From assembly GCA_051362555.1 (NCBI GenBank), contig CM120646.1, positions 14,508,001 through 14,572,000 on the forward strand: a stretch of 64,000 nt of DNA, read 5' to 3'. This document shows positions 7,591-58,248 of this stretch, piece by piece; within the stretch, counting starts at the first letter, position 1, and each line of letters begins with the position of its first letter. A program made the translations under genes and the position numbers. This DNA comes from Lingula anatina. Lineage: Eukaryota > Animalia > Brachiopoda. A model generated the notes under the pieces. The model was not told the DNA's origin, did not search any database, and saw only the letters and a program-made list of their open reading frames with translations.

Positions 7591-7631
<41 letters not shown>

Positions 7632-18042: not shown

Positions 18043-21000
18043 TTACAGCTTGGCCTTTAATTCATCCATGGCATGGTGTTTTAGCTCCCTGCGGAGAATT
18101 TTGCCGCTCTGTGACTTTGGAATACGATCTATGAACACGACACCTCCACGAAGCTTTTTATATGGTGCTACCCTTTCTGTAATATGAAAAATCAAACTAT
18201 TATTTAGATTTATACACATTACATGTAAAGGCTGTAAAGATGATTTTTTATGGTGACTATCCCTTGATTAATACAATTCCAGTACCGGTATATGTTCTTA
18301 TTCAAATCAACCTGTAATTTCATAAATCAGCAAAATCATAAATTTATATATTAACTTATTCAGATCTTCACAAATAACCGCACTGAACAATAAAATATCC
18401 CTCTTCACTTTGTTACAAAAAAAGACTCTCACTATGTCCACGAGCGAGAGATAAGCGAAAAAGACTCACCGCTAACAAATTTCTCTATGTCGTCTACGGT
18501 GACGCTCGACCCAGGCACGGGCACTACGTAGGCCCTAGGGATCTCCCCTGCTGCCTGATCTGGCAACCCAATGACCGCGGTATCGGTCACAGCTGGGTGA
18601 GAGAGCAACACGTTCTCCAGTTCGGCTGGAGGAACCTGAAAGAAAGAAAGAAAAAAAGAAAGAAAGATAAAAAAGCAATACAAGCACACAGGAAATTTTG
18701 AACTTGTCAAATGTCCTTGCTGCGTTAGTTATACTAGAATACACAAAGACTACGACTGATAGATTACGTTGGGTGTCCTATATTCACTCGCCCAGAAAGC
18801 TCGGAAACATCGTTATTTTTAATAATTATAAAATAAATGTATAAGCTAAGGTAAATATTTTTAACTTTTTGGTCCAGTTTAGATTACCGGGACCATTGGC
18901 TCGACTACGAATAAAACAAACACGATATTCTCTTTTACAATAGGAGGCTGTTTGTCCATGTCAAAACAACACCCTTCACTACCACCCTTTTCGTGCAGCG
19001 TCAAGGCAGCCTCAGCATGCTTTGTGTACTCTGTACTTATGGCTGCGGCATCGGTCACTTTATCACTTAAACCAACGCAGGTAGACTTAGCTTGGAAACG
19101 TTACTACACAACAGAAAGGTAAGTACGTTTGTTACAATACCTGAAAACCCTTATACTTGATGAGTTCTTTCACCCTATCCACGAGCCAGAAATGTTGATC
19201 CTCGTCGTATCTGCCGACGTCACCTACAGAATAATTGGTACTGTGTGGTTAGTGAGAGGACAGAACGTATGTGGGACAAATGTAAAAGTCAATAAGAATG
19301 TTTTTTTAAATTTTACATGTGTTACACAAATGGAAATTCCAAATACTATGATAGATTCTTCGATCGGCATGCAGCTACATGTAAAACTTTTATAAAATCT
19401 CGTGTTCAGACTAAAGAGGGGGGAGCTACCGGTACATCAACTCCTTGCATCAAATGAATACGGTGTTTTGACAGACAGCGAGGTAGAATTAACTCTGATC
19501 GTAGTTTCCGAATGTGAATTGCAAAAACTCTATCATAGAGACTGGCGTAAATTAGTATCCGAAAATAATCGAATTTAATCATCACTGTTAATGAGTAAAA
19601 ATTAATTTCATTTTCATTTTATTATAATATAATGCATGTATATATGCATGTATATAATGTATCAGAATACGGCAGGATACGACACAAAATTAGATAACCA
19701 AAGGAAACTCTGAAATTAATTGTAATTTCAATTCTGAATTTACATGTACCTGAATTATTTAATCGTGTAACAATGTTGAAAGATGACAATTAGATCTGCT
19801 GTAGCATGTTTGAATTTTTAAAATAATTTTTTTCGTACATTTTTTCATATGTCTTCGTTATGTGAGTCTGCTGTAGCATGTTTGAATTTCATAGTAATTT
19901 TTTTAATATATTTCATTTTCATTTACGCACAGAGGGGCTGCTTACCGGTATGTAACCAGCCTTCATTGTCGATTGTGTTCTTGGTAGCTTCCGGGTTGTT
20001 CAGGTAACCCTTCATAATCTGTGGTCCACGAATACAGAGTTCACCTTCCTGGTTCACGCCCAGGGGCTGCCCCGTTTTCAGGTCGATTATCTGAAAATTG
20101 GTATGGCCGAAGTTGATATTCATTGAAATGTTGATATAGGATGTAATTTGTACCTGTAGAATTCGTCATTTATTTACATTTCTTCGTCATATCAGTCTTT
20201 ATTTCTCATTTTCAATTGTAGTCTTTGTATTGTAGTAATTGTATTGTTGGAGTAAAGTCATTGTAAAGAATGCATTTGTACCGACATAAATAAATGATTA
20301 ATAAAATAGAACATAGTTTCTACAGGGGGCTTTATGACTAAAGTACGATCTTCAAAAACCTACTTGAGCATGTTTCGTCCTATAGGGTTGTGATAAATAA
20401 GATGAAAGGTGATGCGGTTAATGTGTGCGTAAAAACATACTCTCTATGTCAGAACATGTAAAATGAGTGATTATTTGGCTGCTTGAGAGAGAGAGAGACC
20501 TATGCCATTTAAGGCATTAGGGTGAGAAAATGATCTGGGATAGGGGGTGGGGGTGAAGTGGGTGGGGTGGGCAAAGGGGGGGGTATGATGGTGGCTGTGT
20601 TGAAGGCCTACAGCATACATACAGATATATTAATTATACCGCCTCTGGCCCTAACCTAATTTAAGAGAATTCGAGCGGACTGGGAGGAGGGAAAAGGCTA
20701 ACAGTTTAAAAGGATGCGTGTAATTTTTTTTCAAAAATCCAGGAGAGGGGGGGGCAATGTCCCTCCCCATCCTTGACACCCTACGACCCTGTGGCTTACT
20801 TTTGCCTCTGTGTTAGGTAGGAGTGTGCCGACAGAACCCACTTTCCACTCCAAGCCTGCCACAAGTGCTGCAACACTGCACTCCGTCAAGCCATAACCTT
20901 TAGTATACACGAAACAATCCACATTAGTTATGCGTGATTACAGACTTTTGCTAAAAATATGAAATATTTCAATAACTAAAGATATAATAATTTTTCTCAA

Positions 21001-21842
21001 TTTTTCTCTGAGCAAATTTTTGAATTAAAAAAAACACTGATGTTCTTGGCTTTTGAAAAAAGGTTAAGTTTCGAAAGTGGAATAAAATATTTTCTCAACT
21101 TTGTCCTTAATGAAAAAAACATCATTGATTTTTTATTGAGATGCTCCATTCTTTTTAGCAAGAAGGTATTAAAATCTAATTGTTACCAGTGGTATAATAG
21201 CATAAGTAGTATAGAAACATCACATGACCTAAGATGCAGCTGAAATAGCTCTAATGTGTATATTTCTATGATCACCTTGTCTTAGTAGTAAATTTGGAAT
21301 CTTTTCTTGGACTTTCTCCGCCAAATTCGCGCTGAGGGCGGCTGCACCACTGCTTCCGGCCATGACGCTGGAGAGGTCGTATTTATCCGTCAGGGGATGG
21401 TTCGCCAGGAACAACACCAAGGGCGGCACGAGGGGTAGGAATGTGACCTAACAAAAAAGTTAATCCTTTGATCCCATGCAGTGACTTAGTTTTTTTGTTT
21501 GTATTATAAAATCTTCTGAAACAGGTCAAAGACATTATATGTTCAATTATAATTTCAAGCACAATTCACACGCAACTCTTAATCTATGGATTCTTATTTT
21601 GAATTTAAAATATTGATATTTGTTAACAATAAAGTAAACGAGACTGAGTCATTCAAGTTTATATATTGTCATCCAAAGGCCGTCGCTACTTTACAAACAG
21701 AAATCTACATAAAATGCAATTCATCGGCGGGGAGGAGTTGGGGGAAGGGGGGGGGCTGAGGATTCGAAAGATCCTCCCTTTTGGATGGAAAAGGTCTGCC
21801 CTAAATCAAATTATAAATGCAATGGGTTCTATACGAGTACAA

Positions 21843-21885
<43 letters not shown>

Positions 21886-23048
21886 GTGCATATATTTCTA
21901 TTGTACGCTTTGAGTTTTGAAAAAATAAAAAAAATTGACCTAAGTTCCAGGTTCTGCTCCATTTTTCGGGTTTGATCAACTAAGGAGGTAAAAAATAGTA
22001 CACCTTTACAAAAAAGGAACCGTCCCTAAGATGACTAACTACAGGTCTGCGCTGCATATCTACAGTGTACCTGGTATTCCTGAATGCAACTGAGGTATAA
22101 TTCGGGCTCGAAGCGAGGCAAGATGACCATGCACTGCCCAGTGTATAACCACATACACACGGAGTGGAGACCATATGTGTGGAATTGAGGCAATACGGAC
22201 ATCGATCTGTCTGATCCCGGGGGGCGGACTATGGCATTGCCTTGCATTCTGAAACGGGAATGTTTTTTTCTCTTTCAGTTAAAAAAATAAGCTGATGAAC
22301 TGTCTTATAAGACAGACTATATATGTAGTAATAAATCAATTGAATGTATTAATAAAACATGTGTTCATATATTAGCAAATAGTGTGCAAGTGTTTTAAAG
22401 TTTAATATAATCAAAGGTTTATTTCGACAGATTATCATTAGAAGATGAACCATAAAAGATGCCATGCAAAGCCGTTCATGACTACTCCACATTTCCTCAA
22501 AAGTGCACGTAGCAGGCTTGTTCCAAGAGCGCCATTGATCAATTCAAATTGAAGTCTGGCATTCAGAAGGAAGAAATTAACACTAAAACAGTACTGCTGT
22601 ACGCAATATTAAGATTTCAGCCACGACCTCCGTTAAAAACGATGAGCTCTAGTAGTACTTACTGTAAAATATTAGCCACGACGCTGTAATGTGTCAACAT
22701 CACTCCTTTGGGTAGCCCTGTAGTGCCGCTAGAGTACAGTATGGCACACACGTCTTCCATGGGATTGAAGGTTAGGTTGGTGGGGTACGCGTCCCCAGGG
22801 TCGTTCATCAACTCTGAGAACGAGCGACAGTTTGGCGCCTCCCCGAGAACAAAGATTTCCTGAAAAAAAAGATAAAGAGACAGGTGATAAAAATACAAGT
22901 TTCTCCTTGATAAAAACACGCTGTACCCAGGTTTTATTAGTGACTAGAATTCCTTTAAACTATCCCAGTTCTTGTAAGATAATAGTAACTCGATTCCATG
23001 TGGCTAATATCCTCCCTCCATTCATCCATTCGTCTTTCTCTCTCTCTC

Positions 23049-23099
<51 letters not shown>

Positions 23100-24899
23100 T
23101 TATGTTCTTACTTTAACGTTCCCGCTGTGTCCGGCGGCGACCTGTGCATTCTTCACCAGGCTGGGTATGGTGAGAATGTACTTTGCTTGGGAATTCTTTA
23201 ACTGTGTATCCAGTTCATCTGAAAAATAGAAAAAGAAACAGACTTGGCGAATTTGTAGAGTCAATACAATTAACGGGTCCTGTAAATAATAGTTTTATTA
23301 CTTCCTTAAGCCTGTATCAGATTATATTTGTCATTTGTAAGGAAATGAGTCAAATTAAAATTCGGATAGGGGGCGGTGATCGAAATAGAAAGACAAAAAA
23401 GAAGCAAAGTGGAGAATAATAGTCCATAGATGCGTGGGCTGGACTGAGGCTAGGAAACTTCCTTCTTCTCAAGTTGTCTTCAATCAACAGTTAGTATTTA
23501 AAATTGTTCCTTCCCTCCAATATTTCGATTTCATAAAGGAATGAGGCTGTCCTGGTGAATCATCTTTTTAAAATAAAGTCTATTCAAGAGAAACGGAGGA
23601 AAAGCGCTGGAAGCATTACATACTCTCCTTGAAGACCAAGAAAATATTGGCATTGGTGAATCACTGCATTATTCTTATAGCATAACACAACTGAACATTT
23701 TATGTAAAAATCTAATTAAATAATCAATACTATCACCATAAATCTTTTCTGAGCAACAATGTCAACAATTTATGTTAAAAGGCTAATTAAATTATCAATA
23801 TTATCATCATAAATGCTTACACGATGTGTACACGGGGTTGACTGTGGTAAAGCTTCCCCCTGCACTGATCACGGCCAGGTAGGTTATAATGTACTCTGGG
23901 CAGTTAGGTGTATAAATACAGAACACGTCACCCTTCCTCAGCCCTGCCCTCGCCAGACCACTGGTCACTCGCCGGACATAGTCCTTGAGCTGTCTGTGCG
24001 TGATTGTCTTTTTGGCCGCTCCGTCAATCTGAAGATGTGTATGTGAGTATGAAATAAATAAATAAATAAATAATGATGCTTAAGCGGCTCTGGTGTCAGG
24101 CACGCTTACTTAATCTGCTAGGGGTTAACTATCGTTTAGCAGTAAGCGTGCCAGGCATTTAAGCCGCTTAAGCTGAAAGCAATTGAGCGAGAAACCCCTC
24201 CGAGATGGGTCGATCCTGCTAGATCGATCTAGGTATGGGAATGGGGTCTAATAAACGTGGGCCGAGAGCGACACGTGACTGCTGCTGTGTCAACCCCCCC
24301 CCCCCCCCCCAACACACACACACACACACAGGGGCGGATCCAGAGCTATTTACTGACAGTCTTCCGAATTATCTTTATTGATTCATCCTCCAATTTTGAC
24401 CGTCTTCCAACAGAAAAAATTAGATACCCGTCAATGTTAACTTGAAAATCTGACCGTCTTCCGGAAGACCCAGAAGACGGCCTAAATCCGCCCCTGACAC
24501 ACGCGTGTATAAATTAATTTTTGCTACAATGTGTACTGTTTTCATTTGAGATGGAAACGTTAGAATCTCTGAACCTCATTAACGTGGGCCGGGAGAGGCA
24601 TATATATGTGACTGCTGCTGTGTCGACCCCCTCCCCTCCGACCCTCCCCCCCCCCTTTACCCCGCGGACCCACCACTGTACTACTGTGCATGTATGGGCT
24701 CCATCTCTGTGGTAATTAGTAGGAGAGTAAATGTCACCAACTGGTACCTGTACACCCACACATTCACCGTAATCCTATCAGTACCTGTACTTACGATTGC
24801 AGGAAGGTCTCCGTAGCTCTCTGTATGTCTGAGCACGAGTTGATGCAGAGTTACATTATCTGGGATATGAACATCGGGGAACAGACTTCGAATACTCAT
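18043..24899 (-). CDS. Peroxisomal acyl-CoA synthetase of the 4-coumarate-CoA ligase / firefly luciferase-like family (ANL superfamily); 11 coding exons
   Basis: Minus-strand exons 24899-24795, 24028-23821, 23218-23112, 22859-22663, 22248-22071, 21447-21276, 20897-20800, 20090-19946, 19223-19141, 18635-18470 and 18176-18043, phase-compatible GT-AG. Motifs: [16 protein letters not shown] (P-loop), [59 protein letters not shown]. The C-terminus AKL-stop is a PTS1. Confidence 0.93.
24078..24250. mobile_element. Truncated copy of a fold-back (palindromic) Harbinger/Tourist-like MITE family
   Basis: Internal inverted repeat GCTTAAGCGGCT..GGCACGCTTACT / AGTAAGCGTGCC..AGCCGCTTAAGC. The right end TAGATCGATCTA...GGGAATGGGGTC-TAA is shared with the copy at 25999-26189. 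Confidence 0.65.
24329..24496. mobile_element. hAT-like MITE (CAGGGGCGGAT...ATCCGCCCCTG), copy 1, inserted in a (CA)n tract of the ligase intron 1
   Basis: 11-bp TIRs. The internal sequence (TTGATTCATCCTCCA...GGAAGACCCAGAAGA) is shared with the copy at 31389-31551. Confidence 0.8.
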
Positions 24900-25732
24900 G
24901 GTCAAGAATCAACGCAGCTTTGAGAGTTAAGTGCAAGAATCAATTTTGTTGCTAAGCCTCTTGGTATTTTCACTTGCACCGTGATGCACCGAACCTTTTT
25001 GTATTCAAGACAAAAATACGACCAAGAGGCGAGTGTTTGGGTGATTAACTCACATTCGGCGCAGGTCAAAATGTAGGGCCATCAACATGTGTACCTGTAC
25101 TGTGATTGCTCTAAAAATTGGGTCAAGTAACTGCTTGGATAAAACCTGCAATGAAGTCTTTGTACCTGAGGTCCTCTTTGACGTTACGTTATCTGGCAGT
25201 GTGAGACTTTTAAGGTAGCTGCTTAGAAACCATAGCTTTATTTGACAAAAGTTGCCCTTCCCTAAGGCAACCTAGGAATCGCTGAAAAGGGGACGACTTT
25301 GAAAAGGTCCGCATACATGTGTGAGTGTGCGTGTGTGCGTGTGTGTGTGAATGTGTGTGTTTTTGTTGGGGGGGGGAGAAGTATCGTTAAGTATTTATAA
25401 GGCGTTCTGGCACACATGTACGGACTTTTCAAATGAGTTCTATAAAGGTATATTGTGACCTCAAGATGTTCTAAAATCAGTGGCGGGTTTAGGGGGAGTT
25501 CAGGGGGGTCCTGACCCTCCCTTCGATTTCTGAAAATATCACACCAATGGTCCCCTCTTGAAATTAGAATTTTGATTGGCTGAATCATAGTTCTAAACCG
25601 TTCCAAATGGCACTGTTCTCTCTCTAAAATACCCATCCCCCCCCCAAAAAAAAAAAAAAAAAAAATCGGGGCCCTTCAACGGTCCGGTAGGTTTTGCATC
25701 CGCGGACCCCATTTCCCTTCAAGTAATCCTGC

Positions 25733-27036: not shown

Positions 27037-28803
27037 ATGGCTCTCGGGGGCCTCCGAGTTTTATTACTTCTAATTTCCTGCTTTGTGTGCACACTGTCTC
27101 ATACACAAATCAGTCTAAACGGGGAATGGATTGCCAAGAGTAGCAATGGAAGTAGGTCGACATGTTTAGCACATGAGATTAATTTATAGCTTATCGATTC
27201 AATGTTGCTCTGAATGTGACAAATAACTAAGTTGAAGTTCATTTGATGTCCCGATGTACTACCGGTAGTATACCTGCATGTCGCACATTTTGTTTGCCTC
27301 AGTTTCACTGCATGTCTCACGTAAAACCAGTATAGTAGCAGAATAAATTTTGGTGTTGAAACGTGCGTATTTGAGCTATTTAAATCCAATCAGCACTTAT
27401 TATAAACTCATTATGTAACATTCACAAATTAAAGCAGTTGATTAGTCACGCTTGTAGGAGATCATGTTGGTTTCAGGTATTGTAGTGTCCTCCACCGTGC
27501 CAGGCAGTATATACACAGATCTGATCAAAAACGGCACCCTGAAGGACCCATACTACAGGTTCAATGATGAGGAATACAGATGGGTGTCCAAGGACGACTG
27601 GACATTCACAAGAACATTTACAGGTACCTGGAACATGTACTGCTAGTATATGAATGTCTTCAAGGCAAAGGTGTAAATGGGCGTGGTTGTGTTGGGGGGG
27701 GGGGGGGGGGTTAACCTCCATCCCTACATTCACATACATGCAGCTTGCATTATTCCAGTTGTGTCAGTCATAAGCACAGGAAGAGCATTGGTTGAGGGGG
27801 GTCTTATAGACCACGTTTGCCCATGATTTAGAACTTTATGAAAAAAATGATAATAATCATTTACAGTACTAGCACTGATACATTCTGTGAGATTTTCATT
27901 TATTTTGATAGCACAGGTCTCAACTTAGTAGATGTACACCTTGGTGTAAAAGGTGTAATCTGCAAACTTGTCTTTAAAAGCTTATTGAAAGTTGTAAAAA
28001 CAAAAACGGCTATGATTTTGAGTTTGTCAGTTCAAGCTTGGAAATTGTTACTGCAAACAAGGACGTATAAGACATCATTGCTGCAATAAGCTCATACAGA
28101 AGTATATAAATCACACACAAAAAAAGATCATTACCATTTGAAATAAATCTGGCATTCTGATAAATTAGCTCTCTAAGTGAATATATTTCAGAAATTTGTT
28201 AGTTCATATTGGTATTTTGTTAATATCCTGTTGTGATATTTTTTCCTGTTTATTTCCAGTTACCTCACCAATGCTGAAAGCTTCTTCAATCAAACTTGTT
28301 TGTGATGGTTTGGATACTGTGGCTTCTGTCTATGTTAATAACCAGAAAGTTGGAGAATCAATCAACATGTTTGTCAAATACAAGTTTGACATCAAGCACA
28401 CCTTAAAGGTATATATATGTTTGAAAAATAATGGTATTTTGACATTTTTGAAAAAAAGTTATTTTATTTATATAGAAGACTTTTTTTCTGCAGGTATAAT
28501 TATTATGTAAATAATATGGATATTAGTTTATATAATGATTACTTTACATTACTGAGAATATGCTAGTAAAAGATGAATCAGCACCAGTTCTAATAAAGGT
28601 AACTTTTTATAAACCTTATGTGTTCAGTTATGAATTGCGTCAAGCATAAAATGTTTTTAAATTATCAAGTGTTGTACAGACTAATTAGCTTTCATTTTCA
28701 TGGGTAGATTTATAGATAAGAAGGCCTATTATATCATCACTTGTTATGTATCCTTTATCTAGATTATTTCAAGTTTAACCTTGTTACACATACTCATATA
28801 GTT

Positions 28804-28834
<31 letters not shown>

Positions 28835-29876
28835 ACACACACACACACACATATGAGGTATATGTTTCATTTTTTTAAAACCTTGAAATTTATATATAAG
28901 TTCATAATCATACATGTTTATAAAATATGTTCGATAAGTACCATTATTCATGTATATTGTATTATACATTACATGTTCATGTATGGGTATGGTTATACTT
29001 TCATTCATGTATGCACTATACATATATGTAGTCAAGTAAAACTCAATATTATTGTGCTATAAAAGGCAGGCCCAAATGAGGTGAAGCTAGTGTACCAGTC
29101 TCCAGTGAAGTATGCCTCAGACATGGCAAGTAAACACTGGGAATACAAGGTGCCCCCTGAGTGTCCCCCAGAGGTCCAGCATGGGGAGTGCCATGTGAAC
29201 TTCATCAGGAAAGAACAGTGTTCTTTCAGCTGGGACTGGGGGCCAGCTTTCCCTACTATAGGAATATGGTGAGTTTGAGTATTAGGTGTGCTTTTTTTTT
29301 TTTTTTTTCTAATGTCCTGCAAACTTAGTTATTTTTCCCAATTCAGACAATTTGGCTTGTGTTTGATTTTCATCTATGAAATAGACCAGTGCAGTTAAGT
29401 CAATCACTTGATAAATTAAAAACTTACCAGAATTTATAGTTTAACATCAGTTTGGTTTTTTTACCTTAGGAAAAATATCAGTGTTGAAATATCAAACTCA
29501 GTTGTCATAGATGCTGTTATGGTGGAAACAAAACCTGGTATGGAAATGGTCTTCTATTTTTTCTCATTTGATAAAAAATTACATTGTTTGTGCATAAGTA
29601 GAGACAATAGCTAGTATGAATGTATATATTTATAAATTAGTACAAGTTTGTCTAATGTTTGATTAGACAAATATCACGCATTCATATAATATGTATTTTA
29701 ATACATTAAAATCCTAATTTCGAGTTTTCACTGTGTTTTCTTTTTTTGCAAAAAATATAAATTAATAATGTTTACTGACAAAAATTATCTTAATTGGTAA
29801 ATAAATTTTAAAAAAAGAGTTAAAAACAATTCTCAATGAAAAATTGCTTTTTATCAGCATTGTATTAATAATAATA

Positions 29877-29913
<37 letters not shown>

Positions 29914-30154
29914 ATATTATTATTATTGTATTCCAGTGGGTGACTACAGTTCTTGGGTGCTCAGTGTGAACACTTTCTTTGACCTGTATGGCAGTGGCAA
30001 GTACCCTGGTGTTCTAGAGGTCAGGGTACCTGACGTGGGGCTAGTACAGAAAGTGTCCACCACTGTGGGAGGCGGGGTGAAGAATATCACTGTAACTTTG
30101 AAAATTGATAAGGTAGTTTTTTTTTTAAATTCTTTTTTTTTTTAATTTTGTGAT

Positions 30155-30204
<50 letters not shown>

Positions 30205-33200
30205 GAGAGCTGGACTTACATTATATACACCTGCTGAAAGAGATTTTGTTTTAATTGTTTCAGTTCCTTTAAAGATAACAACTTTTTGTGTGAGATCTAT
30301 ATTTCACAATAAATACATTGCAAACAACTCATGACAAACAAATAAATTCTATTTTACCACAAAAATAGCGGTTAGTACAATTATTCTGGAATCTTTGCTT
30401 GCCATCAGACCACGTGACCTCCATAGATGACCCTCTGTAATATGTAATCTCTTAAAAGATTATTTTTAAAAAACAAACATTTTAGGAAAAAAGAGACTAA
30501 CTTTGGTAAGTATGGGTAAAATTGTTGTTTACCCCAGGAAAATCCATTTTTGGTACAAAAAGAACAGTAACTCTTGTTATTGTTTTAATTGTCACCCAAT
30601 TTATGTTTGTCCAGATTTTTGAAAAGGTGTCTTTTAATGGCCAAACATTCCCATTTCTAGTATTTAAAATCATTTTAATGTTTCCATTTAAAACTGTGTA
30701 CTTGAAATGCACTGCATTCTGGCTGGTTCAGAAATGATGAGTTTTATTATTATTTCAGGGTAAAGTGAAGACTTGGTGGCCGAATGGACATGGTGAACAG
30801 CCGTTGTATTATGTAGAAGTGCTGTTCACTAGCCAGACTACCAGTGAACTCACTGCCAAGAGGGTGAGAGTTGGCTTCAGGACAGTAGAATTGATACAGG
30901 ATAAAATACCAAATGCAAGTGGTATGTGATAAAATTAACCAATTTTCATTTTCTAGAAGTAATATATACTACCCCCCCACCCCACCTGTCATTTTGAGAT
31001 CAACCAAAGAAGTTGTTACAGAAATAATTTTCACACATACACTTGTGCATAGACATAACAGCCTTGACCTTTTCCATGTCCTCGGCCTTAATTACATGTC
31101 CATGGTTTTCATGGTCTGCACATAAGTGCAAATTTCACACAGTTTTAATCATAATTAAAATTGACCTTTTTTTTTACAGAAATCCATTGCAAGTTGAATC
31201 TTTTTCAGGGCTCTCATTTTACTTTAAAATCAACGGCAAACCAATCTTTATGAAGGGTTCTAACTGGATCCCTGCAGACAGTTTCCAGGAGAGGCTCACC
31301 CCAAAATACTTACGCAGTCTGTTAACCTCAGCACAGGCAGTGCACATGAACATGCTGAGAGTGTGGGGTGGTGGGGTAGGTACAAAGACGGGGGCGGATC
31401 CAGATAAATTTTCTGACAGTCTTCTATATTATTTTGTTTGTTGATTCATCCTCCATCTTCTGACAGAAAAAAATAGGTGCCCATCAATGTAAACTTGAAA
31501 AATTCTGATCGTATTCCGGAAGACCCAGAAGATGGCCTCCATCTGCCCCTGAAATATACAAGGGAATGATGTTTTTATATTAAAATAATATACTTCAGAG
31601 GCTATGGTTCATATATATTACTAGAGGTTTAGCATAATTTCCAGCAGTCTGGCCAGCATATGTGACTACTGCATAAGTCTGAGCAGTGTAGTACTAGTGT
31701 AGCTATTTTAGGTTAGTTCCCAACTCTCTTTAAAACTGGGGGCACTGCTTTTAATTAATTTAGCTGGAGATCAACACTGTCGGTTTTGTCATCCTTCAGA
31801 TATATGAGAGTGAAACATTCTACAGCCTGGCTGATGAACTGGGTATTCTTATCTGGCAGGACTTTATGTTTGCTTGTGCTCTGTATCCTGTAGATGAGTA
31901 CTTCCTGGACAGTATACAGACAGAAGTTACTCATCAAGTAAGTTGTTTATTGTGAGAAGGAAATAGAACAAGTGAATGAGCTTCTTTGTTTTTGTTTTTG
32001 CTATTATTATAAAATAATAATTATTATTTTAGTTATTTTTTTCCTTTCAATCTTTTGTCACTATTTTTGTTTTTATTTTTATTATTTGAGCAGGGAGTGC
32101 TACATTAAGCCTGCATGTTTATATAAATATTATAGTTTGTTTTAAAAGTAATAAAATGAAAAAATTACCTGCATGCAGTTATATTTACTTGCCTATTACA
32201 GCTGAAGTAATTTGGCTGGGTCATCATCAGTTGTAACTTGGTCTATTTCTATCTACAAAGTGATAAATACTGCAAATTATGTTTTGAAAATACAAGTTGC
32301 ATTTGTTGATGTTTTTCTTACAATATATTAGATTCTGCGCCTCCAGGCGCATCCCAGCATAGCAGTGTGGAGCGGCAACAATGAGAACGAGGGCGCTATT
32401 GCCAACAACTGGTGAGATGTGTATCATTGCTTGACAGGCTGCTTGCTTGCTAACATAAATTTATGGCATCAATCTTGAAAACAATGTGGCAATAAACAGC
32501 GCAAGTGATTTTGGCATTTGAGCATGCAGTTGTGGGTAACCAAGGGTCTCTCCTCTCCTCCACTCCCCTGCCCTTCCCTTCCCCCACCCCCAATAGATTT
32601 TAGTGCCTGGAACCCTATTGCAGCCTGAATGTGAAGCACCTGTTCAGAGTACTGGCAGACATCATGTCAAGCGCAGGATTTCCATCAGTTTCAGTTGTAT
32701 ATTCTATTGCAACAGTATCTTTCACCTTATTGCAACCTGAAGGTGAAACACCTGTTTGGAATTCCAAAGGACATCAAGGCTATGCGCATTTGTCAAGCTT
32801 AAGACTTGTTTTACTTTCAGTTATAGGTGCTTTTCTAGCAAGCCAATTGAAAGCTGGTTTGGACCAGCTGCTGTAGTCGCTGTGTTTTTAATTTATAATT
32901 TTTGCTATAAATTTCCTATGTGTGCCCTACACACCAACATATCTAGCTTATCTGATCAATTGCTCTTGATAATTCACCATGTCCCTTACAGGTGCTCCGA
33001 TTACAGCACCATCCCTCTGTAGCTCTGTGGAGTGGGAATAATGAAAATGAATGGGGATTAATGACTGACTGGTAAATGCTTCAGTGATCCTCTGAAGAAA
33101 ATATTGATTGGCTTTGCCCTATTTTCAATTCCTCATTTTATTCACCTTTGAATTTTTTTTTCTTTTTGCTTTTGAAATTATATCTTCCACTTACCCTTTG

Positions 33201-36200
33201 GCTCATTTGAGTATCATTATTTTTAGCAACAAAAACAAAAAAAAACTGATGTGTTTGTAACAGTGAAATGGTGACTTTTTCTGTAAATTTTTTATTCTAG
33301 CCTGACTGCAGTGAACACATACTTCAAGCTAGTTATCTTTTAAAATCATTTCCATGTTAATTAATGGCATTTTTGTTATGAACCACAATTATTGCCATTT
33401 CTGTTGTGCATTTTTGTTGTTAAATGAGAAAACATAGTTGTTTTTGATACCAAGAACCATGCAAAATGTGTTTAATTGAATAATTTAACCAAAAAGAATG
33501 CTTTTATGTTTGAATAAGTAAAGCAATTTTAAATAATTATACACAATGACTGAATTAAATTAAGGACACTTGATTTCTTTATTTATTACCTGTATATCTA
33601 TAGCTCATATTTCTACTGGTAGGCCTATATTGATGTAGTTAATGTGAGAACTTTTGTCAGAAAGAACAGCTGAATATATATTTTTTAAATTTTAGGTATA
33701 ATATAACAGATTTCAAGAGGTATAAGGCAGACTATGTCACTTTGTATATTGACAATATTATGAATATAACACAAAAGCTGGATAGAACGAGACCGTTTAT
33801 TCCCTCCTCTCCATCCAATGGGATTGAGACTCAGCAGGAGGGATGGGTTGCTAAGCAACCACAAGACATCCATTTTGGTGACAGTGAGTTTTTTATATTT
33901 ATTAATTTTTTTTAATTTTTGCACCTGATTTAAATTTTTATTTTTATTAATAATTTGCTGCTTTATATATGCCAGAGTTAACCTTCAATATGTACTCCAC
34001 TATTTCAGCAATATTTTTAAACAAGAATTATATACCCATAAATTCTTTTCCTTTCCCCATCAGTACATCATTATGATTATGGTTCTAAAAGTTGGGAGTG
34101 GAATCACTATCAGATCCCTCGTTTCTGTTCGGAGTATGGCTTTGAGGCTTGGCCATCTTTTGAAAATTTGGAGAAAGTCAGCGTCACAGAGGACTGGAAT
34201 TACAACAGCGAGTTTTGTGACCACAGGCAACATCATGGTGATGGTAGGTTTAATGTTTTTTGTTGTTGTTGTGATTGTAACTGTTAAAACGTACCCCTCA
34301 ATGAAATAAATGTAGTGTTCTGTTTTAAAAAATCAGCTTGTCCATCTGTCGTAGCATTCTACCACCTCATCGCAGACAGCAGTGGTATTCAGTTATCAGT
34401 ATTCAGATCTCATGAAATTTTACAGCCATGAAAATTTCAACATGTACTACTGTACCTTGGTATTATTTTCATATTCATCAGATCAAAACTTAAAATATGA
34501 TATTGTTTTGCTATATGCTGTAATTTCCATTCAAAAAACTATGAATTTGTGCTAGTATACACTTTTGATCTTAGTTATGTTATGAATAGAAATACATTCT
34601 TGGCTCCGTGAATAGGTACATCAAAAGGGGTGAACTACAAGAAGGACTATAACTTCAAAGGTATTTGGATCATAGGACTCTCATGGGACTCTTGGATAAA
34701 TCTGTGAATAATTCACCTGGTAAAAGTTAAGTTCACACAGGTCATCTCACCAAAATCTTCCAAACTTTTATTCAAGAACTTTATTTTATATTTTAGGAAA
34801 CAAGCAGATGGTGACTCAGCTGGGATATTATCTAAATCTACCATCTAACCCTGATCCAGTCCAGCAGTTTAAAGACTACATATATCTTACACAGGTAAGA
34901 CAGTTGTCCAGTAGTTTAAATTATTATAATTAAATAATATACATATTTACCTTCAGTCTTATATCCAAAATACTGGACACCTATCTGTAAATATGGTAAG
35001 ATTTTATCCCAACACTGAATTAAGTTTTTTTAATGATGCAGACTTAGGGTCTGAAGTAAAAGAATAACATGGCAGATATTTACTGTTGGATAAACCACAG
35101 ATTCTCAATATATTATAATAATGGCATTATGCCGTGTTATTCAGATAAACCAGGCCATGAGCATAAAGACAGAAACTGAGCTGTTTCGTAGAAGTCAGAG
35201 CACAGTGGTAAATGGTGTTGGTATGACCATGGGAGCCCTCTATTGGCAGTTACAAGATATATGGCAAGCACCCTCATGGGCATCCATAGGTACAGTAAGC
35301 TTATAGGGCTGTTTCAAAGAAAAGTTTAATCTGATATTGGTCTGAAATTTGGTCTACCAGTACTTCAGTCAATTCCAGATTAATTCATAGTTATCAAGCC
35401 TGTGGAAAACCGTTTGGGGTGTGTGTGATCTGTCCATTTTGAATCAAAATTTAGCCAAGGTTCTCTGACATAATAGCACAAAAACTGCTTTTCTCATAAA
35501 AAGCCCGCCCCCCCTACTTCTCCCTCTGGCTTTGAGACTTAAAAAAGTTAACACAGTTTTAAAAAAATCACAAAGTTACACGATAAGTCAATTTACATCA
35601 ATTAATGATTGTAAATGTGTGGCATAATATTGTTGGTTTTATTTACTGGCAACAGAATATGGTGGAAAATGGAAAATGCTTCACTACTATGCCAGGCATT
35701 TCTTCAGTCCTGTTCTGGTTTCACCATACATAGATGGCGCTGTGCTCAAGGTTGTCTTAGTTGTGGACACACTGTCATCAGGCAGGGCATTACAGAAGTC
35801 TGGTAACACTCTGTACATTCAGTGTTATAGCTGGGACAACTTAAAACCTCTCTATACATGGACACAAAAAGTAGATGCTGTAAGTATTTTTTTTTCTCCT
35901 TTTAGCTGTTTTAATTATAGAATTCTTGAGTAATTTGATTGTATTATTCAATGAGATATTATGGTAAAATATAGTACATTACCCCCTGCAATTATGTATG
36001 TATGTACGTACCTACATACCTACCTACCTACCTACCTACCTACCCACCCACCCACCCACCCACCCTTACTGAATTTTCCTATTAGGGTCCTTTTGGATGT
36101 CCTATAGAAAATGGCCCCAAACCCTGTAGGGTCCTATAGGACATATGCCCTAGGTAGGACTCCTATAGGGCAGGCAATTGAATTCTTACAGAGCCCCATA

Positions 36201-37179
36201 GAATCCTATATGATTCCTATAGACCCCTGTTGAATGTTCTAAAGAGTATTTTGGAAAGGGTATACCAGTTAATGATATAAAAATATTTTAATTTTCACAG
36301 CCCAAAGTAGCAGCTAGCCAGATATTTCAAGCCAATGTCACAGCTATGCTGAAGACTGCCAAATGCAGCAGCCTGCAGCACTGTGTTTTCTTTTTCTTTT
36401 TGAATGATGTCCACACTGAGGTGAGAAACTGGGTTTTACCTGTCCCCTTGAAGACAGCAGTTGGGATGAAGAAGCCAAATGTAACGGTAAGTTTAGCAAC
36501 AGGCTTTCTATTGCATTTCAAAGTATTAAAAATGGTGTTCATGACTTTTTTTTATGTAAGTTTTCAGTCACTTTCTTTTGCCTTATTTGCTTGCAGTTAC
36601 TTTGGCAAATAATATAGCTTTTCACTGGTGTATGTTTTCCTCTGTATAACAAAATGAGTAGATAAGCACTGATAGTGATGGTTATTTTGAAATTCACCTG
36701 TACTGAGGCACATGTACGTGTACGCAAAAATTTTGAAAATTAGGTTACGAGCATATTTATATCATGTTTGTATTATAAATTATGTCACCAGTGATTTGTC
36801 ATTCATCAATAAACTTTTTATTTCACATAAAGAAGTGCATTATATTCTACACCTTAATTTATATTAGAAGCTACACCTTGGTTTTAGAATTCTTTACCTC
36901 TGAGTCAGAAGTATTTAGCTCTTAGACTTTTTTTTCATATTTCAGATTTCAACAGTGACACAAAAAGACTCCCAAACATATCAGATAAAATTAACCACAG
37001 CAGCAGTTGCTCCCTTTGTTTGGCTGGAAGCCAACGGGATTTTGGGAAGATTTTCTGACAATGGTTTCCTCATGGTTCAGTCTACAACTAACATAGTGTT
37101 TTATGCTTGGGAGACAACTGATCTCAATTCTTTGAAAAAAGCACTCAGCGTGCAGTCTCTTATGGATGTTTATAAGTAG
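27037..37179 (+). CDS. MANBA: Lysosomal beta-mannosidase (glycoside hydrolase family 2) with a tandem-duplicated catalytic exon
   Basis: Exons 27037-27151 (signal peptide), 27477-27623, 28260-28408, 29066-29268, 29470-29537, 29937-30112, 30759-30921, 31209-31375, 31800-31937, [32332-32411 OR 32992-33071], 33696-33883, 34064-34243, 34797-34894, 35145-35289, 35656-35879, 36301-36486 and 36946-37179. Motifs: [53 protein letters not shown] (acid/base), PRFCSEYG (nucleophile), [23 protein letters not shown]. Confidence 0.96.
31389..31551. mobile_element. hAT-like MITE, copy 2, in a MANBA intron
   Basis: CGGGGGCGGATCCAG...ATCTGCCCCTG, collinear with and similar to 24329-24496. It starts 13 bp after the donor at 31376. 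Confidence 0.75.
32332..32411 (+). CDS. MANBA: MANBA alternative catalytic exon A ([27 protein letters not shown])
   Basis: 80 nt; acceptor ...TATTAG, donor GTGAGA; phase 0 in, phase 2 out; joins 31937 to 33696 in frame. Confidence 0.9.
32992..33071 (+). CDS. MANBA: MANBA alternative catalytic exon B ([27 protein letters not shown])
   Basis: 80 nt; acceptor ...CCCTTACAG, donor GTAAAT; phase 0 in, phase 2 out; joins 31937 to 33696 in frame. Confidence 0.9.
36063..36260. mobile_element. Degenerate MITE with repeated CCTATAG subterminal motifs in a MANBA intron
   Basis: Ends CCCTT.../...AAGGG; multiple CCTATAG/CTATAGG units inside; next to a (TACC)n/(CACC)n tract. Confidence 0.4.
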
Positions 37180-39590: not shown

Positions 39591-39665
39591 GTCTGATTAG
39601 AGTGCAGATCTGCTAAAGTTTTTCATTACAGGGCGACGTTGTTGGTCCAGACAGTAAAAAAAAGC

Positions 39666-41525
39666 ATGAAGTTCTACGTGTGCTTGTACATGGTGATCAT
39701 TCTCTTAATGCAAGGAGTCGAAATGCGTACCGGTAAGTCCTGATTGGAACTTCTTTTAATATGAATTTAAATCAATTAACGATTTATCTAAAATTATATA
39801 TAAAATACAATGGTTACCCCTTCGAAAAAATGAATCTTTTTACTTTTCATATGAAAAAAAATATTAAAAGAGGGCGGGATTGTTTTATGAAGAGAAATAT
39901 TAGTTGTTTATTAATTTTTATTATTTTTGTAACAGAAACTTGTATATTAATCGATTCTTCTTATCTAATCTTCTGCTTACACATCTGCTAAGTTTACGAT
40001 TTTATTGACGCTGCCAAACTGCTAATTTAATGTCAAAGATATATGAAGTGCATGGCCACTTTTTTAACTACCTTCCAGTTCCAAAAAAGTCGTCCAAAGA
40101 AGTAGCAAAGGCCAATTCAGTTTTTCAGTTTAGCTGGTTGGTGATCTGTCACATTGGCTTGAAGACCGCTTCCTCTCTGGCGGACTATGGATGTTACTGT
40201 GGCTTCGGTGGCTCTGGGCGACCAGTGGACGCAATGGACGAGTAAGAGCTATGTCTCTTAAGACTGCTATCCCATAAACCCATCGCACTAGCTGAATAGA
40301 TCTAACTCTGCGAGGCTTCCCGCTAAAGTGCTTTCAGTGTAATCAGCTTAATTGTCTGGCACGCCCTGAGTAACAAGCGGGTAATTGACTGTCGTTAATT
40401 GCCCCCACTGTAGCTTGAGCAGGCGTACCAGACATTTAAGCTGCTTAAATTGAATTTAGTGTGATCCCCGTGGAGTTAGATCCACCCAGCCTGTACTATG
40501 GGTTTATGGAAACGCTCCCTTAGATCCAAACACGTGACAGAAATTATATGAGCAATTAAATCCTATTGTACCTTTGACACTCTGATAACATATGCATAAA
40601 TTCCGTTTTAATAGAAAAAAGGGTTTGCACTGAAAGGAAATAATATCAATGATCTTTAGAATCATACCTTCTTTCAATAACTGCGGGGCACATTCCTTCT
40701 TTTTGTCTCTACTTAAGATGCTGCAGGACTCACGACTTGTGTTATGGTAGAATAGGAAGGTGTAACGCTTATTTGTCTTCATACTCACACCAAGGCTGCG
40801 ACTTTACAGGAAGAGAAGTCATTTGCAGTAAGTCAGAGTTTCTCGTTTTATGCAACTGACACAGACAAAAGTCTGTTTTGTTATGGTTCACCAAGTGATC
40901 GATTTAACTGGGTAAAACAAGTAGGTTTGTCATAATCGCCGTGATGATTTTTAAGTCAAATGAATTGAGTCTTATTGGCGTTTATATAGAGATTAACAAA
41001 TAAAAAGATATTAAAAACTGCAAGCTATCTGCTTATGCGTCTTCTCCAGGACTGTATAAATGCCTATTAAACAATGTGGTAACGAGTAGATACGCTGGAG
41101 GGATACAACTGTTGAAGGGGGGGGGGGGGGGGGGGGGCTCCACAGCGATTTGCTGCTCAGGTGTCTGCCAAAATATTGTTTTAACTTAAAAGTTATTATA
41201 TGTTGGTAATGATTCACGTTCTGGACAATGCAAATCGCAGAAAACGTGCTTAAAGAACCAACAACAGAATTATTGAATAACAAAAGACATGTCTTTTCCA
41301 TTGATTGGATAAGGAAAGCTGTTTATTCCTTTTTGGAAAATACTTAATATCAATGTTTCTTTTACAGGGAATATTAGTAACTTTTTCCACAACAGGTGCA
41401 CATATAACCTTTGCAAATGCGATCTACAGGCAGCAGAATGCTTCAAGAGAGCCTTGCCGTCATTCAACCCTCGTGCATATTATAATTATAATAACCGATA
41501 TAGGAATGCCTGCAGCAGTTGGTAA
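39666..41525 (+). CDS. Secreted phospholipase A2 (group I-like), paralogue 1; 4 exons
   Basis: Exons 39666-39732 (signal peptide [17 protein letters not shown]), 40079-40241 (SVFQF...[16 protein letters not shown], Ca2+ loop), 40718-40827 (CCRTHDLCY, His-Asp) and 41368-41525 ([12 protein letters not shown]...NACSSW*). 14 Cys in the mature part; AATAAA at 41595. Confidence 0.92.
40261..40519. mobile_element. Fold-back Harbinger/Tourist-like MITE in PLA2 copy 1 intron 2
   Basis: TTA flanks; arms CCCATAAACCCAT...TAGATCTAACTC / GAGTTAGATC...ATGGGTTTATGG. The core AGCAGGCG..CAGACATTTAAG resembles the copies at 24.1 and 25.8 kb. Confidence 0.65.
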
Positions 41526-44062
41526 TAAATAGAGCATTTGCTCCTTCAAGCTGTGAAGTTCTTTATCAAATTATGGAATCAGTCGTTTCCTCTCAATAAA
41601 ACACCAAATACCACTGTTGCACTTCGAGAGTTTATTATCAGGCACACAATCAGATGCAATTAACAATGAGTAACAAACTGTGACAATGAGTTACACAATC
41701 GAAGTTTTACAGGCCAGAAGGGCCTGGAAGAATTCTCCACTCGCTTTCACCTAAGCACAAACTCCGTCCCTGATATAAACTCTCTAATCTACGGTTCTAA
41801 CGAAAAGTAAAAAAAAAAAAAAAAAAACCGGGCGGGAGGGAGGGATCACAAAAGTCTAATACTGCTTCGCTATACTCATGCTTAACCTCCCGCCGCTGCT
41901 TCGCAAATGCCGTTTAAACCTGGTGCTGTGATCACTAACCACCACTGCGCATGTCGGCCCGCGTATCGGTACAGAGATTGTGGCGCCACCTGCCCCATGC
42001 CCGGATGTATTAAACTAAGCTTAACTCCCGAACTGCACACGCGCCGTAGTATTTGTGTTTTACGCCATTTCAATTGAAATTAACAATGCCGAGGTAACTG
42101 TTCACGACTCCATAAGCAATAAAACAAGGTTCTGCCGCAACCCATGTGTATTATCTCCTTGAACTACAATATCACTGCTATAAAACCTGTCATTTACCTC
42201 TTTTTTCAAATAATTTGTCCAAGATATAATATAAAGTGTACAATCATGTTGACAATCAATCAAAAACAGTCCGACAAAATTTACTGTCGACGTCAATATA
42301 ACTTATGATAAAGAGATAATAAAAATATGAATAATGATAATATGAAGCTCGCACAACAAAAAAGTAAACAAAATTTCAGAAAACTTTTCTGGTGCATTTT
42401 ATCTATTCATACAAGTACCTTCACAGGTGTCGTTCAATAATTTGTTGGAACTACTATGCAGCAGTTATTGTCGCATTTAATTTCTATGTTAACTTTTTGA
42501 AAACTTTTTATATACTTTTTGAAGCTTTCATAAACTTTCAGAAGTCTTATATGACAGTTGCACACCTTGCACATCGTTATAGATATTTGGTGCTGTCCGC
42601 ACTTGAAGTGCTTTACTTATCAGCATAAAATAAGGAGTAGGGGCAGGGAGTAAAGTGACCTGCATCTGAGAAATAAAAGATATGAAAAAGAATTAAAATT
42701 AATGCCTTCAAAATTTCACTTGACCCATGCTTATAAATGCCTCCTTCTGAAGGTTCGATTCAAGATGAAATGCCTGTCTCGGTCAGTGCGTGCGTACAAG
42801 TGGCAGAACTAACAATTTTCCCCACACACACTGGGATGCTTACTGACATGATATGATTATTGGAGGGGGGGGGGGGGGGGGGGGGGGGGAGGGCGAACAC
42901 TTAATGAATTCAAACGTGTTTCGTGCTTTCGACAAATACTGTTGTGCTAACGTGGCTCTTTGGCAGTTCAGGTTATCGTTTTCATACATAGTGAAGCGGA
43001 TGGTTCATAATTAGTCACTTTGGAAATCACAGACTGATTAAATAGAAAATGCCAAATTTTGTAAACCCTCTAAATTTGAGGGATGCTATAATGGAACAGC
43101 TCTAAAAACTGTAAAGAGCAGTACATGTTAGTTCACTACCGATTACCGGCAGGGACCACATTACCGTCTCTTAAAATTAATACAAACAAAAACTGAATGT
43201 CCGATGTATGCGGCCTGAGTTTGATCGTCATCATCATCCCAGTCTGTCACGCCACTGCGGCTGGCTGGCCTCCAAAGACTTCTTCACGCTTGGCGGTTTT
43301 ATTTGCATTTCGTGCTGTCATGCTGTACATAGTTCAACCGTGATAACTCACCACGCTGGTTTAGTGTGGGTTGGTAAATGCAAATGCCCGCTTGCTCAAG
43401 CATCAAATGTTCATGCAAATAACCGCGTTTCCACACTGAAAAGATTGTAATCAAAACTGTGAAAATAGTTTCATTTGATCTCAGTTTTGATAGTCAAAAA
43501 TTTTTCATTTTTGATATACTAGTTACAACACGAGTCGTCCACTGTATCTGTATGTGACATACAAGAGCGTAATTGCTGTGGTCGACGAGTAGTTGTAACA
43601 GGCTAATGCCACGGCTGGCATTACGCACAATAGGATGAACGCATCGAAGCGCATGAAAATACAGGCAAGCCTGAATGCGAAATACAAGTGCAATTATCAA
43701 ATATAATATAAAAGGTAAATCAAATATCTGGATCTATCATAAACGAAAACTTTTTGACTATGTAATCAAAATTGTAGCTTCCTAGTCATATCTTTCAGAT
43801 TTGTGTTTTAAACGTCATATAATTATGTAGGCGTCCCGTTGCCAAATTAGGTACTTTGTAAGGACACACGCAAAAGGTTTTTCTTGAACCATTTAAATTA
43901 TGATAAATTAAATGCCCGTAAGTAGTAAACAGACACTATACGATTGCATCTTTGTGGTTTTGATGGTGTATAAACATAAGTCACGCTCCACTACCGCATG
44001 ACGAGTTGATATATGGTTAAGATGTTTTGTGAAAAGAAAAATACATTGCTTGTTCACCGCAT

Positions 44063-44134: not shown

Positions 44135-44217
44135 GTCAAATACTAATGTGCAACGCGCAGACCTAACCGATTTTTCATAACAGCGCGACACTGGGAGCTC
44201 AGAAAGTTTCTGACATC

Positions 44218-45782
44218 ATGAAGCTCTACATGTTGGTGGCAGTCATCCTCTTAATGCAAGGAGTCGAAATGTGTACGTCTAGAACCGTTTTAAAGGTTTA
44301 AATTTATACTGTCACCAATAACGGATAAATGTAATTTTTTAAAGTTAACTCTCTTGTTGGGCTAGATAGGTTTATTTGTTTTTCACTCATCCAGAGAAAC
44401 CTTTTTACCTATATAAATAAATAACAGATTTGCGTAAGAAAACTTTCTGATAATTAATCTCAACTACTGCAAACCTTAGCTTAAATTTTCTTCTTATTCA
44501 CTATGCTCAAATGTTAATCAAAATAGTGAATAGAAAAAATATATATACAGCTAATGGCCATTTTATATTTTTATATTGAAGCACCAAAGAAAAAGCCCAA
44601 GGAATGGGGGCAGGCCAACTCTGTTGTAGAATTCGGCTCATTGGTGCTGTGCTATACCGATTCCGTGACTGCATTCCAGCTAGCGGACTATGGATGTTAC
44701 TGTGGCTACGGCGGCTCTGGGCAAACGGTGGACGCGATGGACGAGTAAGATTCCACATTTTACAAAATCTTGTAAACACTTCCCAGAAACTAACTTTATG
44801 CTCAATGTAAATTTGGTGTACATTTGGCATTTTGACAGATGTATATTTGGCGCCCTGTCAACATTACATTCCAGTAGAATAAAAAACCGGTTTGCATGGA
44901 AAGGGCATGAGCCATGAATTTTACACACCCACCTTCTTTTTCTAACTACATACCCATTTTTTCCTTTTGTCATTTTGCTAGGTGCTGCAAGATTCATGAC
45001 AAGTGCCTTAATACAGTAGGAAGCTGTTATACTTATTACGCCTTTTATTCATACACTGGGTGCGACGGATCTGGAACAGACGCAACTTGCAGTAAGTTGT
45101 CCAGAGCTTTTCATTTTATGCAATATACACTGACACAAAACATCCTATCATTTCTTGCCGGTTTATCAATTGATCAGCTGAAAGTCCAATCTTAAGTCTG
45201 CTTCGGTATGCAATAATTTGGCAACAATACAGATTTATTTTATTTCCTTTTTTGGATCGGTGTTCCTCTACGATTTACTGCCCCGTTTCGGTCAACAAAT
45301 GTTCACGTGTTGGTGATTATTCACATTACTGGAGCGTAAACCAGACGGACTGTTAGAGTGCCCCGTTGTGGCTTGTGGGTGTATATTATAATGATAGTTT
45401 TTACCCTAGTTTAAGAAAGAACCTAACTAAATATTCATGTTTAAAGAATCAACAATATTGTGAACTATAACAAACCAATATCGGTTCAGCACATTGGGTG
45501 AAGTAAACAATTACAGCTGTCAAATCTAATTGGAAATTACAAACGTTTTAAATAATGAACAGATTTAATATAACAATTAGACATGTTAATTCTTATTGGG
45601 AAATAGCAGATATCATTGTTTCTCTTGCAGGGCCACCGAGTTATTATTGGTTCTATGGCCAGTGCAGATATAAGCTTTGCCAATGCGATCTGGAGGCCGC
45701 AAAATGCTTCAAAAATGCCTTGCCGTCATTTAATCCTGGGTTATATTACAATTATAACGCCCAGCCCAACAATGTCTGTTAA
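44218..45782 (+). CDS. Secreted phospholipase A2 (group I-like), paralogue 2; 4 exons
   Basis: Exons 44218-44272 (signal peptide, donor GTACGT, phase 1), 44582-44744 (DYGCYCGYGGSGQTVD), 44982-45091 (CCKIHDKCL) and 45631-45782 (LCQCDLEAAKCF...NNVC*). 14 Cys; AATAAA at 45871. Confidence 0.92.
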
Positions 45783-46184
45783 GTTGGTTTGAAAGAGAAC
45801 AGTTGCTGGTAAAGAGTTGCATATTATGAACATTTTTAATGGACTTTGGCACTCAACTAACGTCAGAATTAATAAAACAAATTTACTCCTCAAAACAAGT
45901 GTACATGTAATTTCTTCTTGAATCTACCTCTGTACAAGCAGTAATATAGTGGAAAAATATTCCACATTTGTGGTATTCGTTTAATTCTTTCAAAATATGT
46001 ACGATTGTTGGAATTATTTGATGGTCATCCATGGCTGCTGGAAATACAAATTTAAGTGCACGAACATCATAGTCCTTTATTTTAGTTTTGTGTTTTACCA
46101 TGAAGAACAGAAACCAAATAATCGTTTCACCTGGTTCACAGAATTATATTTGTATTTAAAATCAAAGTAATGTAAGACAAGACA

Positions 46185-58216: not shown

Positions 58217-58248
<32 letters not shown>

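Follow-up and report, generated by a model that had tools for sequence, protein, structure and literature searches.

Two mutually exclusive exons around the catalytic acid/base of a Lingula anatina beta-mannosidase may tune the aglycone side of its active site

In the brachiopod Lingula anatina, one gene for a beta-mannosidase carries two versions of the short exon that specifies the catalytic acid/base glutamate, and spliced RNA reads join one or the other version to the same flanking exons. An old tandem duplication of an 80-nt exon that encodes strand beta4, Glu460 as the acid/base and the next short helix would have generated the pair, and either copy would be spliced into the same 886-aa enzyme. 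Both forms would be active retaining exo-beta-mannosidases. The form with exon 10A would keep the small-residue helix of animal enzymes, while exon 10B would set a tryptophan at a distance of one helical turn from Glu460, an arrangement also found in many prokaryotic mannosidases. We put a probability of roughly 0.55 on the reading that this Trp reshapes the pocket on its aglycone (+1) side and thereby shifts substrate preference. The expected outcome would be a change in kcat/Km among aglycones, i.e., Man-beta1,4-GlcNAc versus manno-oligosaccharides or other beta-mannosides.

The window, the whole stretch of 64,000 nt that was analysed and from whose first letter all positions are counted, contains the gene on its plus strand at 27037..37179, from ATG to stop, with 17 coding exons per isoform. 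Exons 1 to 5 lie at 27037-27151, 27477-27623, 28260-28408, 29066-29268 and 29470-29537; exons 6 to 9 at 29937-30112, 30759-30921, 31209-31375 and 31800-31937; and the exons that follow the pair at 33696-33883, 34064-34243, 34797-34894, 35145-35289, 35656-35879, 36301-36486 and 36946-37179. Exon 10A (32332..32411, residues 443-469) is the consensus-like copy and exon 10B (32992..33071) the derived one; an intron of 580 nt (32412..32991) separates them. Constitutive exons flank the pair upstream (exon 9, 31800..31937, with a phase-0 donor) and downstream (exon 11, 33696..33883). All introns are GT-AG, and RNA-supported junctions were seen across 30700-35000. Dispersed repeat copies occur in intron 8 (about 31390-31570) and at 24330-24500, and many RNA reads only partly fit the intron-8 repeat.

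The two exons are each 80 nt long, have phase 0-2, and match at 47 of 80 nucleotides, with splice-site contexts tag|...TG|gtgaga (10A) and cag|...TG|gtaaat (10B). The terminal TG of either copy and the first G of exon 11 complete a shared Trp469 codon. Exon lengths, AG/GT borders, phases, intron length and both peptides given in the preliminary description were all reproduced from the sequence, and so was its statement that one exon keeps the frame while both or neither lose it: an 886-aa reading frame results with 10A or with 10B, inclusion of both exons leads to a stop at 33020, and skipping of both leads to a stop at 33699. A recount also agreed with its figures of 17 identical residues out of 27 (split Trp included) and, among the 16 complete codons whose residue is unchanged, synonymous differences in 11. 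The peptides match each other at E=4e-10 (blastp within the window), and a self-comparison of the window revealed no other duplicated exons in the gene.

Several other genes surround this locus. Two mutually similar, multi-exon secreted phospholipase A2-like genes lie in tandem just downstream on the plus strand (39597-41529 and 44167-45789), with PF00068 detected on 40009-40242 of the first. Upstream and divergently oriented is an AMP-binding (acyl-CoA ligase/luciferase-like) gene with PF00501 and PF13193 (about 18400-25050, minus strand). Farther out are a single-exon carbohydrate sulfotransferase ORF (3660-4568, plus strand; PF03567, E=2.6e-52), a coiled-coil gene (about 5300-9900, minus strand) with a NEMO CC2-LZ-like stretch below the Pfam cut-off and a C-terminal zinc-finger-like CPKC...H...C motif, and a large mosaic extracellular gene (about 52300-62200, plus strand). 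The latter has sushi-like repeats, a LamG/concanavalin-like PF13385 match just under the cut-off, and segments that resemble C-type lectin and WSC domains as judged by eye.

By sequence, the gene encodes a MANBA-type GH2 beta-mannosidase, presumably exo-acting. The product shows the GH2 multidomain arrangement (PF22666, PF02837, PF02836 and PF17753), and mouse MANBA (PDB 6DDT) was identified both by phmmer (E=6.5e-262) and as the best Foldseek match (E=8.6e-81). Both isoforms carry WDW at 193-195, RVWGGG at 391, GNNE at 457-460, SEYG at 554 and YWQL at 657. These motifs agree with the human active-site residues W190-D191-W192, W390, E457, E554 and W657, of which E457 and E554 are catalytic (PMC3333182, in excerpt), with W393 and W658 as Lingula equivalents. 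Fold and motifs are likewise common to the Lingula enzyme, mouse MANBA, BtMan2A (2JE8), DtMan (5N6U) and XacMan2A (6BYC). The GH2_13-type subfamily label used here follows PMC12243196 and is not a tool assignment. The hydrophobic N-terminus and the nine N-glycan sequons are the same in both isoforms; thus, separate targeting is not encoded in exon 10.

The event is partly known, since automated RefSeq annotation already holds both isoforms. Exon 11 matched a single protein, RefSeq beta-mannosidase isoform X2 of L. anatina. Isoform X1 (XP_013386684.1) contains 10A and isoform X2 (XP_013386685.1) contains 10B; both have 886 aa and differ from each other at exactly ten exon-10 positions. The two models are the same two proteins described here under automated names, and the record fields displayed say nothing about mutual exclusivity, the place of the swap in the active site or a function. 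Their cluster of four entries is completed by a partial allele-like model, which starts at exon 9 and uses 10A, and by an unrelated 41-aa entry.

Eight of the nine RNA runs listed under the species label (coded X1 to X8, distinct from the RefSeq isoform names) were aligned, using approximately 6% of the reads of runs X1-X6 and 25% of those of X7-X8, at 95% likeness for runs X1, X4, X7 and X2 and 90% for X5, X6, X3 and X8. A junction was listed if it had at least 3 reads in one run, so that joints with 1-2 reads per run fall below this listing. Exon 9 was joined to 10B (31937>32992) by 3 (X1), 7 (X4), 5 (X7), 3 (X2), 10 (X5) and 7 (X8) reads, and 10B to exon 11 (33071>33696) by 2, 6, 3, 6, 3 and 8 reads in the same runs. 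Joints of exon 9 to 10A (31937>32332) had 3 (X4), 4 (X5), 2 (X3) and 6 (X8) reads, and those of 10A to exon 11 (32411>33696) had 4 (X5) and 5 (X8). Run X6 had no joints at the locus. Over the eight runs, 24 junction reads thus support 10A and 63 support 10B, giving 87 in-frame reads. Runs X4, X5 and X8 each contain junctions for both forms, and all four in-frame joints are present within X5 and X8 individually. No joint of 10A to 10B and none skipping both exons reached 3 reads in any run. Mutual exclusion, the first claim of the preliminary description, is therefore observed at this read depth, with low counts, and a count of the junctions that it named bears it out.

The 10A-to-exon-11 joint was absent from the listing at 95% likeness, though 10A had depth in the corresponding runs (X1, X4, X7 and X2); 10A junctions were probably undercounted at this stricter setting. 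Exon depth was higher for 10B than for 10A in seven of the eight runs, the exception being X3, which had very few reads. The same data leave next to no credence for an assembly artefact, an allelic mosaic or a pseudo-exon as the source of the pair. Spliced reads link each exon to the same flanks within single runs, and the synonymous divergence between the exons is far above allelic divergence. Furthermore, the window models and the RefSeq isoforms are identical at 874 of 886 residues; their 12 differences all lie outside 10A and 10B. Both exons are thus present in two distinct sequences.

As to how the exons exclude each other, the 10A-10B intron was inspected for known mechanisms. It contains a branch-point-like TGCTAAC (32448-32454, plus strand) 42 nt past the 10A donor, a motif that would be found at such a place by chance in approximately 9% of cases, and a C/U-rich tract at about 32548-32590. 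Exclusion by a distant branch point, as in OGDH 4a/4b, was not supported, as the intron has 33 AGs and its AG-free zone measures 43 nt. Folding of the intron was no better than that of shuffled sequences (z-score -0.92). Inverted repeats, the candidates for Dscam-type docking and selector sites, are short and mostly A/T-rich, and no convincing pairing was found among the 25 of 55 displayed. Since neither mechanism is supported, we infer that competition between splice sites selects 10A or 10B and that nonsense-mediated decay would remove rare transcripts with both exons or neither. A 53-nt direct repeat in two copies (32612-32664 and 32724-32776, 75% identical) adjoins the C/U-rich tract.

The swapped segment carries the acid/base Glu and leaves the catalytic set untouched. 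N459, E460, N461, E462, W455 and W469 are identical in both isoforms, and the nucleophile E555 (SEYG; codon at 34132..34134 by motif position) is encoded in a shared exon. Glu460 (codons 32383..32385 in 10A and 33043..33045 in 10B) is matched in the alignment by the Glu of GNNE in mouse MANBA, and its human counterpart E457 is catalytic (PMC3333182, in excerpt), which upholds the assignment of the N-E pair as the acid/base made in the preliminary description. Six of the ten differences follow this residue (463-468) and four precede it (443, 448, 452 and 454), three of the latter being conservative. The idea that the differences cluster right after the acid/base Glu thus stands for six positions and misses the other four. 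The 10B signature is Trp463-Gly464 (33052..33057), which reads Gly-Ala in 10A. AlphaFold2 models of both isoforms, built from 27 sequences with a mean pLDDT of 73 and about 66-69 around exon 10, predicted helices at 429-446 and 459-466 and a strand at 452-455; their secondary structure is the same, and the models do not separate the isoforms. Residues 463 and 464 occupy positions i+3 and i+4 from E460 and would therefore share its face of the helix. As judged from this helix geometry, W463 may touch the pocket.

The +1 subsite of GH2 mannosidases takes its shape from the catalytic loop, and a Trp of this loop (W470 in BtMan2A, W485 in XacMan2A, each at Glu+8) serves as the +1 platform (PMC12770490, section 8 and related excerpts). 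By spacing, this platform most likely corresponds to W469 of both Lingula isoforms. The DtMan residue numbers W465 and H490 in the available part of the same source are not consistently mappable onto the 5N6U sequence and were left aside. With the platform shared, the swap would alter the stretch that leads from the acid/base Glu to the platform, and not the catalytic set. What the preliminary description called an active-site switch is correct in that the differences are concentrated in the catalytic loop and overstated in the word switch, since catalytic residues and W469 are identical. Tuning of the rim, rather than a catalytic switch, is what this arrangement suggests.

Divergence between the copies points to an old event. 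Synonymous sites are saturated (pS 0.94), pN is 0.28, and the flanking introns of 10A and 10B do not align beyond shuffles (scores of 23 versus shuffled means of 21-23). Together, saturation and unrelated introns argue for an old duplication, as first proposed. The accompanying proposal that both copies are constrained is likewise supported, both by the ratio of pN to pS and by exon peptides that are identical between the window and RefSeq. Among the RNA alleles displayed, which are indicative as some rows are not shown, six of seven in 10A are synonymous, with A448S as the one replacement, and the one replacement in 10B is T467N. The latter stems from 33065 C>A, a common RNA allele (runs X1, X4 and X2) that introduces the 10A residue at this position. 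A high GC3 of 10A (0.73 versus 0.47, p=0.006) was not significant when allowing for 17 exons.

Such constraint bears on the quite unlikely alternative that 10A and 10B are functionally equivalent, each spliced often enough for damage to cut enzyme output, with W463-G464 merely tolerated. Catalytic residues common to both copies, identical predicted folds and the presence of both forms in the same libraries are compatible with equivalence, as is the absence of the pair beyond Lingula in a small sample. As a general expectation, though, exon copies that are redundant have usually decayed by the time synonymous sites are saturated. Nonsynonymous change is also focused: pN rises from 0.19 in codons 1-20, which end with E462, to 0.58 in codons 21-26, the last six.

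Comparison with homologues suggests that 10A resembles the animal consensus and that 10B is the derived copy. The close-homologue set comprised 118 sequences with W.GNNE, mostly from vertebrates and taken from the best-listed of 7566 matches, plus Owenia and P0124, with two SANNE sequences excluded. In this best-listed set, 116 of 118 members score nearer 10A than 10B, residue 463 is A, V, G, I or E in all 118 (A in 110) and never aromatic, residue 464 is A or L, and W469 is invariant. Ordinary homologues often have D or N at 468, and their residue at 448 varies. A second, diverse set held 148 representatives from the best of 5249 matches to a query that carried W463. Among the eukaryote-like members of this set, residue 463 is A, V, L, E, G, Q, M or others, a variability that suits functional equivalence. 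Nonetheless, W463 occurs in 1 of the 148, a protein of 34% identity whose WCGD motif is prokaryote-like, and this near-absence despite a W-bearing query speaks against equivalence.

The 10B signature has parallels in prokaryotes. Mouse MANBA and the bacterial GH2_13 enzymes each have a single catalytic-loop sequence where Lingula has two, and the W-G of 10B fits the register of DtMan rather than that of mouse. Its N-E-N-x-W-G is the DtMan (5N6U) sequence at the same register and recurs in four intronless metagenome loci (L024 and L036-L038). The W-G register was also retrieved in at least 120 prokaryotic loci, the 120 listed all matching P0002, out of an estimated 660 stretches, by a scan whose pattern demanded W-G and which thus conveys existence and not frequency or function. 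We read the likeness as convergence. The LRLQ start of 10B is shared with 10A and Owenia, suggesting that 10B derives from the animal exon and was not acquired by transfer. A word search with residues 436-480 for a B-like relative, a weak probe with two candidates, yielded P0001 and the A-like P0124. That Trp463 is almost unprecedented among eukaryote-like sequences could also mean that it blocks the pocket, leaving isoform B weak or inactive and splicing as an activity dial. This is highly improbable given that 10B is the commoner exon by depth in seven of eight runs, keeps all catalytic residues and shares its W-G register with the characterised 5N6U.

A more serious competitor, if still an unlikely one, accepts the pair as real and lets the isoforms differ in pH optimum, turnover, stability, oligomer contacts or transglycosylation. 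The pKa of the acid/base Glu could be shifted by the neighbouring Trp, the changes are predicted to fall within two helical turns of E460, and H448 versus A448 and D468 versus N468 alter charge. The same loop governs the activity of CapGH2b through an order-disorder transition (PMC12770490, in excerpt). Yet neither D or N at 468 nor variation at 448 is out of the ordinary among homologues, and the sole unusual change is a bulky aromatic, which is more simply read as a change in pocket shape.

Outside Lingula, the exon was seen as a single copy in the small sample covered. Four intron-rich, animal-like metagenome loci (L001, L013, L025 and L034) have the same 80-nt AG...TG|GT exon, which indicates that the exon unit predates the duplication. 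None of the four shows a second copy (best second score at most 20, against approximately 100), and L025 and L034 span both flanking exons with one copy between them. In human MANBA, the intron 10 donor is at c.1317 (PMC8706588). This donor follows Q439, a position that coincides with the Lingula intron upstream of exon 10. No exon swap was seen among the isoforms of Patella (5 proteins), Lytechinus (5), Dreissena (4, one lacking the motif), Tribolium (3) and Trichinella (3), nor was the pair seen in single proteins of Owenia, Helobdella and Tubulanus. The human exon probably reaches past the 80-nt boundary. Overall, the event looks lineage-restricted, and the duplication may be confined to Lingula or to brachiopods; the sample behind this statement, the loci and genera just named, is small, and clustering may hide isoforms. 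Contigs with multiple matches (L018-L020, L026 and L030-L031) proved to hold tandem whole genes and not exon pairs. These contigs are compact and eukaryote-like, with at least three MANBA-like genes spaced approximately 3 kb apart that differ in their catalytic helices. Dreissena, too, has several near-identical gene models on a contig.

The Lingula exons are adjacent, homologous, equal in length and phase and joined to the same flanking exons, as in the class of tandem duplicated mutually exclusive exons. Human KHK, ACOX1 and PKM belong to this class, and in KHK the exchanged region includes the catalytic Arg108, which both forms retain (PMC9741552, in excerpt). As in KHK (Arg108) and ACOX1 (FAD residues) in the parts of that source available, the Lingula swap exchanges homologous segments beside a ligand site and retains key residues. 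These are different enzyme classes, and the Lingula pair is known from sequence and RNA. MANBA is unmentioned in the available portions of the main text and one supplement file of PMC9741552. In nematodes, flatworms, annelids and molluscs, coq-2 exons 6a and 6e switch substrate (PMC7434440, in excerpt). Going by the same excerpts, coq-2 resembles Lingula MANBA as an invertebrate enzyme with one pan-eukaryotic-like and one derived exon. Its derived exon remodels the substrate path, with the substrate switch shown genetically, and its pair spans several phyla, whereas the MANBA pair is so far known from one genus. Genes with mutually exclusive exons include enzymes, hydrolases among them (bioRxiv 10.1101/292813, in part). 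A search mainly of titles and abstract beginnings, covering few subscription papers, found no published description of the Lingula pair, although MetazExp may list the event; the available part of PMC7560691 makes no mention of splicing. The mechanism class is thus established, and no description was found for a GH2 enzyme.

A bolder extension of the pocket-shape reading is that splicing toggles a lysosomal, normally single-sequence glycosidase of Lingula between an animal-type and a convergent prokaryote-type (Trp-Gly) pocket, serving both N-glycan turnover and the digestion of dietary mannan; we regard it as doubtful. A dietary role is plausible in principle by analogy, as an Aplysia GH2 mannosidase releases mannose from linear mannan (cited in the available part of PMC8233224). 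In place of the tandem copies of the whole gene that some other animals seem to retain, one Lingula gene would serve both roles if the toggle were true. It would then be the first glycosidase found with an acid/base exon under mutually exclusive splicing.

The pair constitutes a natural two-state experiment, in which the catalytic loop comes in two versions, each expressed as RNA, while the same 876 residues surround it. Comparison of isoforms X1 and X2 bears on aglycone preference, and how it is set by residues that follow the acid/base Glu, in a GH2 family that includes the human beta-mannosidosis enzyme, and would test whether an animal enzyme has converged on a prokaryotic pocket motif. 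The pair would also bring a glycosidase into the small group of enzymes that are tuned by splicing of duplicated exons.
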